Under the pieces are notes generated by a model. The model saw only the letters and a list, made by a program, of their open reading frames with translations, searched no databases and was not told the origin of the DNA. Shown piece by piece: positions 51,916 to 53,173 of a DNA stretch of 64,000 nt; position 1 is the stretch's first letter, and each line of letters starts with the position of its first letter. The position numbers were made by a program, and so were the translations under genes. This DNA comes from Escherichia phage EC.P1, in sequence record PQ657772.1; one strand, 5' to 3'.

Positions 51916-52038
51916 TCATTCCCCCATCAACCAATCACGTAGACGTTCCCAGAAGCCTTTTGGCTGATATTCTGGATATTCATATTCATCTGTTCCTTGC
52001 TCGGAAACACCCCAGTCTTCTTCTAATACTGTAATCAC
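51916..52038 (-). CDS. small conserved ORF (41 codons), paralogue A; not in ORF track
   Basis: GTG start after GGAGG; ends ..DWLMGE; stop 1 nt before cca ATG; paralogous to 53048-53173. Confidence 0.4.
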   Translation of the reverse strand: MITVLEEDWGVSEQGTDEYEYPEYQPKGFWERLRDWLMGE

Positions 52039-52049
52039 AATGCCTCCAA

Positions 52050-52472
52050 TTAAATTAATCTATCACGTAGACGGTCGTAATATTTTGCATGTATATCTAG
52101 TATACACTGAAATGACGGATAGTCAATACTAAATGTATCATCAATGAACATGTACTGATCAAGTGTTTCAGGACCATTATCATAAACTGGCAATGAACCT
52201 TCTTTTTTTAACAGTGTGTTCCACATCAAATCACATGTAGTATCGAGAATTGCGTATGCTAATTCTATCTTACTTTTTCTAAGTGTAATTAATAATTCAT
52301 CATTCTCTACTAACGCGTTTCGTATTTTTACACGTACTGTACCCTGAAATTTATTAGTGGTTAGTACTCTATATTGATTATACGAAATCATGCCTCGTAT
52401 TTCAGTACTGATTTCTTGTTCAGAAAAGTACCTTAATGTACTGTGGAAATTTGGTATTTTACGAATGTCCAT
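52050..52472 (-). CDS. hypothetical protein (paralogue of 52459-52872)
   Basis: ORF track; shared motif FIDDTF..DY. Confidence 0.5.
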   Translation of the reverse strand: MDIRKIPNFHSTLRYFSEQEISTEIRGMISYNQYRVLTTNKFQGTVRVKIRNALVENDELLITLRKSKIELAYAILDTTCDLMWNTLLKKEGSLPVYDNGPETLDQYMFIDDTFSIDYPSFQCILDIHAKYYDRLRDRLI

Positions 52473-52872
52473 TCAAATTCCTTTCGTATATATGGTATAC
52501 GTTCATTATACTATTATATAGTTCATAGTCAAATCCAAATGTGTCATCAATGAACTGATATTGTAGATACTCTTCATATGAAGCATCAATTGGTAATGAG
52601 CCAGAACGAATATCATCTGATTTAAAATCGTCAATATATCTTAATGTTATTTCTTCATCAACAGTGATATCTATCATCAACGTATCGTCACTGTACCAAA
52701 GGTTATGTATACGGATGTAAAGTTTCTTAGCACGATTAAAACTAGATACATTGGTATTGCGATGGAGTTTATCTAAGTTGAAGTAAAAACCAGGCTCGTT
52801 TTTACTTATGTTTTTCATATGTTCTGCAATCGAATCAATTATATAATCAATGTTGAATGTTCTCATAAACAA
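52459..52872 (-). CDS. hypothetical protein (paralogue of 52050-52472)
   Basis: ORF track. Confidence 0.5.
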   Translation of the reverse strand: MFMRTFNIDYIIDSIAEHMKNISKNEPGFYFNLDKLHRNTNVSSFNRAKKLYIRIHNLWYSDDTLMIDITVDEEITLRYIDDFKSDDIRSGSLPIDASYEEYLQYQFIDDTFGFDYELYNSIMNVYHIYERNLNGHS

Positions 52873-53048
52873 ATCTCATAGCGGTTTGTGTTTGGATTGT
52901 AGCAATAGGTATCATTAATTTTAACACCAGGTTTAAGTGTTATTGTTGTTCCTACTTCAGTACTGGGTTCTGCATCACAATAAATCATCACACCAACGCC
53001 ACAGATTAAAGCTAAGATACAAATAATAGCACATATTGTATATTCCAT
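52863..53048 (-). CDS. small membrane or lipoprotein-like protein
   Basis: ATG at 53048 overlaps stop of small ORF (TGATG); hydrophobic N-terminus ICAIICILALICGVG. Confidence 0.4.
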   Translation of the reverse strand: MEYTICAIICILALICGVGVMIYCDAEPSTEVGTTITLKPGVKINDTYCYNPNTNRYEICL

Positions 53049-53173
53049 CACTCCCCCATCAGCCAATCAAAGAGACGTTCCAAGAAGCCATTAGGCTTGT
53101 ATTCTGGTTCTTTGTTCACGTCGGTTTCTTGTTCATAAACACCCAAATCTTCTTCAAGTATAATTGTATTCAT
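53048..53173 (-). CDS. small conserved ORF (41 codons), paralogue B; not in ORF track
   Basis: MNTIILEEDLGVYEQETD...FLERLFDWLMGE; about 70 percent nucleotide identity to 51916-52038; overlapping stop/start with both neighbours. Confidence 0.4.
   Translation of the reverse strand: MNTIILEEDLGVYEQETDVNKEPEYKPNGFLERLFDWLMGE

Follow-up and report, generated by a model that had tools for sequence, protein, structure and literature searches.

Two mini-genes near cca in an Asteriusvirus-type jumbo phage belong to one small protein family, and the second copy is probably a recombination-imported spare

The mini-genes and their surroundings

The subject of this analysis is a pair of small open reading frames (ORFs) in Escherichia phage EC.P1 (PQ657772.1), located at 51916-52038 and 53048-53173 of a 64,000-nucleotide stretch of DNA, the whole of which is called the window here. 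Like every gene of the region they lie on the minus strand. Copy 1 (51916-52038) has a GTG start and a TGA stop and encodes the 40-amino-acid peptide MITVLEEDWGVSEQGTDEYEYPEYQPKGFWERLRDWLMGE. Copy 2 (53048-53173) starts with ATG and encodes the 41-amino-acid peptide MNTIILEEDLGVYEQETDVNKEPEYKPNGFLERLFDWLMGE. The initial annotation described two related ORFs, encoding acidic peptides that end in DWLMGE and sharing about 70 % nucleotide identity. This description holds. Both ORFs are present with the peptides as stated, both peptides end in DWLMGE with a net charge of about -8 to -8.5, and the codon alignment of the two copies has 87 identical positions out of 120 (72.5 %). In a tblastn search of the window the copies match each other with E=1.3e-13 (67.6 % identity over 37 amino acids), and the pair is real, far beyond chance. 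A search for further copies, as had been proposed, yielded no third mini-gene in the 64-kb window (tblastn, next best match at E of at least 0.3; motif scan), and the complete genomes of close relatives were found to contain exactly two mini-genes each.

Megablast with 50700-54000 retrieved 37 phage records, every one an Asteriusvirus-group jumbo myovirus (121Q, PBECO4 and relatives), with CMSTMSU, fEgEco12 and WPEC3 as the nearest. The window was thus shown to be that of an Asteriusvirus-type jumbo coliphage. In transcription order the region begins with a lysozyme-like gene (54399-55352), followed by a gene for an HPF/RaiA-type ribosome-associated factor (54050-54382; Pfam Ribosomal_S30AE, E=1.6e-10), which is kept in synteny and forms the upstream edge of a variable array of paralogs. 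A GC-rich hairpin with an 11-bp stem lies at 54014-54041, between the HPF gene and the first array gene. It is the sole terminator-like site in 50000-55500, a terminator is annotated at its place in the UE-S1 record, and the array-cca transcription unit probably begins there. Then come a g277-like array paralog of 138 amino acids (53579-53995; phrog_36582), a g278-like paralog of ~123 amino acids (53173-53544), the stop of which overlaps the start of copy 2 as TAATG, copy 2 itself, and a gene for a 61-amino-acid protein with a hydrophobic N-terminus (52863-53048; 121Q gp535, phrog_4189). Two further array paralogs, g281-like (135 amino acids, 52459-52866) and g282-like (140 amino acids, 52050-52472), both matching phrog_20693, precede copy 1. 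The gene cca for the CCA-adding tRNA nucleotidyltransferase (50799-51914; Pfam PolyA_pol, E=6e-19, and PolyA_pol_RNAbd, E=2e-9) is the downstream neighbour of copy 1, and a nudix gene (50279-50692) is the last one listed.

A catalogued family of small proteins under purifying selection

Both peptides match the hidden Markov model (HMM) of phrog_34272 over their full length, copy 1 with E=3.2e-31 (residues 1-40 of 40) and copy 2 with E=3.5e-16. The ORFs had been considered unlisted, which is not the case. Orthologs of copy 1 are annotated coding sequences in 121Q (gp538) and fEgEco12 (g283), and the counterpart of copy 2 is fEgEco12 g279. UE-S1_486 is a further annotated relative, Munch gp219 and XaC1_258 are examples of PHROG 34272, and the mini-proteins of the window are 97.5-100 % identical to proteins annotated in GenBank. 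Copy 1 and copy 2 are therefore ordinary genes of an already catalogued small phage family. Copy 1 agrees with PHROG 34272, a small hypothetical protein of RaK2-like jumbo phages, in family, length and genomic position, whereas copy 2 departs from it at invariant or near-invariant residues (W9L, W30L).

Copy 1 was found in all 35 Asteriusvirus records, with amino acid identities of 82-97.5 %. More distant homologs were detected by tblastn in Xanthomonas phage XaC1, Erwinia phage Hallingskeid, Salmonella phage Munch and its relatives, and Klebsiella phage fENko-Kae01. From 5.8e9 proteins a profile search recovered 25 clusters of homologs, and from 1.84e9 representatives an exhaustive HMM search recovered 15. 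The database clusters (about 30 overall) each comprise proteins of 38-76 amino acids with common end motifs and in-frame changes in linker length. From 33 family members the end motifs were defined as a nearly invariant N-terminus, M-I-x-x-L-E-E-D-W-G-V-[ST]-[DE], and a C-terminal amphipathic helix, [FW]-W-[ED]-[RK]-L-x-D-W-L (across clusters [FW]-W-[DE]-[KR]-[LF]). Between them lies an acidic linker of ~15-50 residues and variable length. Copy 1 carries both motifs; copy 2 keeps LEED-GV and the helix, with Leu at Trp9 and Trp30. No relative of the mini-protein was found in Pfam, NCBIfam or the PDB sequences.

The family was shown to be confined to RaK2-like jumbo phages, between the genes for HPF and cca. 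In RaK2 and K64-1 the cca module is present and the mini-gene was not found; in CBB and pEa_SNUABM_12 the module is present and a clear mini-gene was not found. At the mini-gene position the latter two phages encode proteins of 47-133 amino acids (2271-3004 of the CBB locus, 2615-2998 of the pEa_SNUABM_12 locus) with look-alike motif pairs, ...DEY[FM]G.D... plus a C-terminal [ST]FW[GY].LI..DI. The mini-protein HMM scores CBB_191 weakly (E=0.29 among 4170 ORFs), and these proteins may be very divergent or fused relatives. In the CMSTMSU record MH494197 (UNVERIFIED_ORG), copy 2 is read as a 65-amino-acid frameshifted fusion with the next gene (P0006, labelled 'tRNA nucleotidyltransferase'), and the region occurs twice, which results in four mini-gene matches; fusion and doubled region are likely artefacts of sequencing or assembly and of annotation.

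Coding status was assessed by the ratio of nonsynonymous to synonymous substitution rates (dN/dS), estimated according to Nei-Gojobori. Between copy 1 and copy 2 this ratio is 0.14, at a dS of about 1.5, with changes at 15 of 23 synonymous and 18 of 97 nonsynonymous sites (Fisher p=2.5e-5). Among mini-gene orthologs dN/dS is 0.06-0.26 (0.09-0.26 for copy 1 against its orthologs), and the values for cca are comparable (0.09-0.11). Substitutions are biased to third codon positions. Conserved codons vary synonymously, with TTA, CTT, CTA and CTC for Leu, GGT, GGA and GGC for Gly, and TCC, AGT and AGC for Ser, so that Ser uses both TCN and AGY codons. This indicates that selection acts on the protein, the motifs of which are held across phages of at least five host genera despite the synonymous codon turnover. 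The dN/dS check that had been suggested, copy against copy and across phages, excludes a neutral, non-coding pattern, and the suggestion of a small protein is borne out. As judged from substitution patterns and motifs, both mini-ORFs are shown to be protein-coding genes of one small family.

Probable import by recombination and decay of copy 2

Only six phages were found to have copy 2, namely WPEC5, fEgEco12, Turkey3, Ecwhy_1, CMSTMSU and ph0011. The 121Q-type phages lack the segment corresponding to window positions 53603-53048 (g278 and copy 2), and the tract discussed below is absent from 121Q, PBECO4, TH47, BF17, vB_Ec-M-J and WPEC3. Among these, WPEC3, with a cca gene 99.6 % identical to that of the window, and vB_Ec-M-J are close relatives. 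JNE01 and Turkey5 lack the segment corresponding to 52856-51915 (g281, g282 and copy 1). Their sole mini-gene is located between g278 and the 61-amino-acid protein gene, as is copy 2 in the window. Sliding identity of the window to JNE01/Turkey5 reaches 89-96 %, confined to ~53503-52980, against 55-80 % in the flanks, and dS between the window and JNE01 is 1.56 for cca but 0.20 for g278 and 0.21 for copy 2. Sliding identity and dS delimit an approximate recombinant tract at 52980-53503 on the minus strand, which takes in copy 2 together with most of g278 and the 5' ~70 nucleotides of the membrane protein gene.

The mini-gene had been viewed as duplicated to serve as 5' partner of unrelated genes. 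These data fit best with recombination between two diverged phage lineages. A tract of ~0.5 kb, carrying g278 together with a mini-gene of the JNE01/Turkey5 type from a sister lineage, would have recombined into a genome that already held copy 1. Copy 1 would be the resident, selected gene and copy 2 the version of a deeply diverged sister lineage. If copy 2 derives from another lineage, the two copies (dS about 1.5) would be as far apart as the lineages themselves.

A 43-bp tandem duplication was observed at 53563-53646 (2.0 copies, 97 % match), spanning the g277 3' end and the g277-g278 spacer; it adds seven codons to the g277 ORF (...NYFL-RPFYIVQ). The segment absent from 121Q-type phages has its left end at the internal junction of this duplication (~53603-53606). 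The duplication occurs in BF17 and A4 too, where the g278/copy 2 cassette is missing.

Copy 2 shows several signs of relaxed constraint. It differs from the single mini-gene of JNE01 by eight amino acids, and with 11 copy 1 sequences as outgroup all eight differences are derived on the copy 2 branch (one-sided binomial 1/256). The substitutions include W9L, W30L, S12Y and G15E. Trp9 is invariant in all 32 other family members, and six residues of copy 2, among which the Leu at this position, are unique within the family. The GGAG upstream of the JNE01 mini-gene is lost upstream of copy 2, which has no Shine-Dalgarno sequence. In ph0011 copy 2 (1366-1491 of its locus) is a pseudogene, with TAG at Trp9 (codon 10) and TAA at Glu13 (codon 14), and is left without annotation in the record. 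Trp9 has thus been changed independently in two lineages, to TTG in the window and to TAG in ph0011. Redundant after its import, copy 2 would be drifting, with Trp9, Trp30 and its own ribosome-binding site lost.

It may also be argued that copy 2 arose by duplication within the genome and neofunctionalised into a working paralog of changed specificity, for instance through the Trp to Leu changes at both anchor motifs. Its frame is intact and identical in five phages, its dN/dS against JNE01 is 0.41, which is still below 1, and it is coupled start to stop with g278. However, the five phages are near-identical overall and their identity carries little information. Furthermore, divergence from JNE01 is ~7-fold lower in the cassette than in the flanking genome, the cassette is missing from the closest relatives, the ph0011 copy has two stop codons and the invariant Trp9 was hit twice, which makes this course of events rather unlikely. 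Genomes with two copies constitute a natural experiment, since the gene has all conserved residues in single-copy JNE01 but has lost such residues or acquired stop codons in genomes with a second copy. This provides independent support for selection on the protein, and on Trp9 especially.

Gene context, the leader question and possible role

In every lineage examined the gene order is lysozyme, HPF, one to four array genes, mini-gene, zero to three array genes, cca, nudix and glutaredoxin. This order spans phages of Escherichia, Salmonella, Klebsiella, Erwinia and Xanthomonas as well as metagenomic contigs, while the array between HPF and cca expands and contracts. The array family, to which the four ~130-amino-acid genes of the window belong, consists of proteins of ~120-160 amino acids with a common type of C-terminal motif (EEEFFQxSxLxD...Y..Y). 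An AlphaFold2 (AF2) model of g282, with a predicted local distance difference test score (pLDDT) of 84, has an alpha-beta6-alpha-alpha fold.

The mini-gene might descend from the C-terminal helical module of this array family, either as its remnant or as a stand-alone form. Copy 1 resembles the tail of g282 (YPSFQ...YYDRLRDRLI vs YPEYQ...FWERLRDWLMGE), an identical 12-mer, CGTCTACGTGAT, occurs at 52062-52073 in g282 and at 51934-51945 in copy 1, a deletion in Salmonella phage SD-15_S21 can leave a 33-amino-acid C-terminal g282 ORF, and similar motif pairs occur in longer proteins of CBB and pEa_SNUABM_12. Yet a profile-profile comparison by hhalign of the mini-protein (26 sequences) with the array family (61 sequences) found nothing (1 aligned column, E=0.35, probability 0.2 %), the mini-protein HMM gives CBB_191 only the E=0.29 mentioned above, and other phages, in which the Leu codon is TTG, do not share the 12-mer. 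The mini-gene was accordingly rejected as a C-terminal fragment of the array family, and a derivation from its helical module is quite improbable.

On the coding strand the 12-mer encodes RLRD, in frame near the 3' ends of both copy 1 and g282; it may be due to chance or to an old local duplication. The deletion in SD-15_S21 (2388-2489 of its locus) took g281 and most of g282, and the annotated 33-amino-acid ORF that is left is the g282 C-terminus (MFIDDTFSIDYPSFQ...YYDRLRDRLI), which shows how mini-ORFs can arise in the array.

The stops of the mini-genes abut or overlap the starts of different genes, as the initial annotation stated. A 1-nucleotide spacer separates copy 1 from cca (...ATG GGG GAA TGA T ATG, the last codon being the cca start), and copy 2 overlaps the 61-amino-acid protein gene by 1 nucleotide at ATG 53048 (...ATG GGG GAG TGATG). 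Copy 1 has a GGAGG Shine-Dalgarno sequence at 52043-52047, 4 nucleotides upstream of its start codon, and the stretch aattGGAGGcattRTG is kept at all Asteriusvirus loci, with a start codon alternating between GTG and ATG. The last codons of the mini-genes, ...ATG GGG GAR TGA, double as Shine-Dalgarno sequence of the next gene, GGGGGA for cca (51920-51925, within the Met-Gly-Glu codons of copy 1) and GGGGGAG for the membrane protein gene (53051-53057, within the last codons of copy 2). This double use accounts for the abutting junctions as well as for some of the nucleotide conservation at the 3' end, and the C-terminal residues of copy 1 are under dual constraint, from the protein and from the cca Shine-Dalgarno sequence. 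Junctions are comparably tight along the whole operon-like array, and each mini-gene was shown to be one cistron of a tightly packed polycistronic unit.

These junctions formed the basis for the proposal of a coupling leader, in which translation of the mini-ORF delivers ribosomes to the downstream start or unmasks it, and which would have been duplicated for two unrelated genes. The abutting or overlapping stops and the Shine-Dalgarno sequences within the upstream coding sequence are indeed what the mini-ORFs have in common with translationally coupled leader ORFs. Unlike in such leaders, the peptide itself is under purifying selection and conserved in distant phages, the downstream genes function in relatives without the mini-gene, and no RNA structure masks their starts: folding at both junctions is no better than in shuffled sequence (minimum free energy z = +0.66 and -0.50). 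Moreover, the downstream partner varies. It is cca in most lineages, the 61-amino-acid protein gene for copy 2 in the window and for the mini-gene of JNE01 and Turkey5, a ~128-amino-acid array gene in Hallingskeid-type and two metagenomic lineages, and an inserted 355-amino-acid gene in A4 and TH47. Where cca does not adjoin the mini-gene it has its own AGGAA (JNE01) or AGGAAGG (A4, TH47), and the 61-amino-acid protein gene of 121Q-type phages, in which no mini-gene is adjacent, has its own GGAG. In Munch an 11-nucleotide spacer and a separate AGGAG precede cca. The varying neighbour and the Shine-Dalgarno sequences of the downstream genes in the absence of the mini-gene imply that the mini-ORF is not a required leader, and the comparison of loci shows that the downstream genes do not appear to depend on it. 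With equally tight junctions throughout the array, the leader proposal has become very unlikely. The 355-amino-acid gene (2633-3700 of the A4 and TH47 loci), which sits exactly between the mini-gene and cca, encodes a DUF4379 treble-clef zinc finger and looks like a mobile, homing-endonuclease-like insertion.

Two closer forms of association with cca were rejected as well. An obligate link does not exist, as RaK2, K64-1, CBB and pEa_SNUABM_12 have the cca module without a clear mini-gene. A programmed frameshift or readthrough fusion was discarded since neither the frame offset nor the spacing at the junction is constant across lineages (1-nucleotide, 2-nucleotide and 11-nucleotide spacers, 4-nucleotide overlap), which makes a conserved fusion of mini-gene and cca impossible. 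Finally, a non-coding repeat (regulatory RNA, promoter or terminator repeat) open in one frame by chance, which the short, repeated, intergenic-looking sequence with its strongly conserved 3' end could bring to mind, is refuted by the third-position bias, a dN/dS far below 1 and the retention of protein motifs, to which are added the lack of any Rfam family at the mini-genes at E<=1, of a folding signal, and of promoter or terminator consensus sites commoner than in shuffled sequence, and next to no likelihood is left to it.

Taken together, the mini-ORFs would be real genes of RaK2-like jumbo phages, with copy 2 a recombination-imported, decaying spare and not a leader for the genes behind it; the probability of this interpretation is estimated at about 75 %. 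Several points weigh against it. Five closely related phages share copy 2 in intact form and with 100 % identity, so that it could be maintained or even be adapting, although its dN/dS against JNE01 is not above 1. The data may fit either direction of cassette transfer, and an old duplication with a later exchange of the cassette could, less probably, underlie them. Weak coupling, with ribosomes passing from cistron to cistron, probably occurs at the mini-gene junctions as elsewhere in the array. The record of fENko-Kae01 carries a note on liquid chromatography-tandem mass spectrometry for the products of cca, nudix and HPF and none for the mini-protein, and in the literature no study of the mini-protein, nor of Asteriusvirus transcription or proteomics, was found. 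The idea of a binding partner, to which we turn now, draws on sequence architecture and gene neighbourhood.

The AF2 model of the mini-protein (25-sequence alignment) has a pLDDT of 61 and an ordered helix at residues 29-38 only. A low-pLDDT model with a single helix is what peptides that fold upon binding a partner would typically give. The mini-protein would then act as a small, largely disordered acidic protein, binding its partner via the two conserved end motifs, tethered by the flexible acidic linker. Two end motifs, a variable acidic tether and a charge of about -8 indeed fit a small bipartite protein-binding ligand. By neighbourhood, the most plausible partners would be the phage CCA-adding enzyme, one of the ~130-amino-acid array proteins or a host protein. 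It is tempting to speculate, with the odds clearly against it, that the mini-protein is a dedicated bipartite ligand, with the LEEDWGV anchor, the helix anchor and possibly an RNA-mimicking acidic linker, which might regulate the phage tRNA-repair/translation module, e.g. through binding to the CCA-adding enzyme or to a host factor that targets tRNA or ribosomes.

Lambda CIII, T7 Gp2 and lambda Kil are small phage effectors that exert their action by binding to a protein of the host or of the phage. They resemble the mini-protein in their ~40-50 amino acids, an amphipathic helix and the absence of an enzymatic domain, but have no counterpart of its acidic linker and LEEDWGV motif, and the likeness is one of analogy only. 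A lambda CIII-like helix was rejected: the Munch homolog gave a single weak match to phrog_550 (CIII), over 16 residues of the helix (E=0.07), and none of four mini-protein members matched Pfam Lambda_CIII at E<=1.

The mini-ORFs of the window are already annotated, ordinary genes, and the window is without a new regulatory device. The value of the analysis lies mainly in clarification. The mini-protein represents a well-defined, strongly conserved 40-residue family beside tRNA-repair and translation genes that is tractable for functional work on small proteins. Its remaining interest lies in the invariant motif and in this conserved position. If it does serve as a bipartite ligand, it would represent a new class of small jumbo-phage effector.

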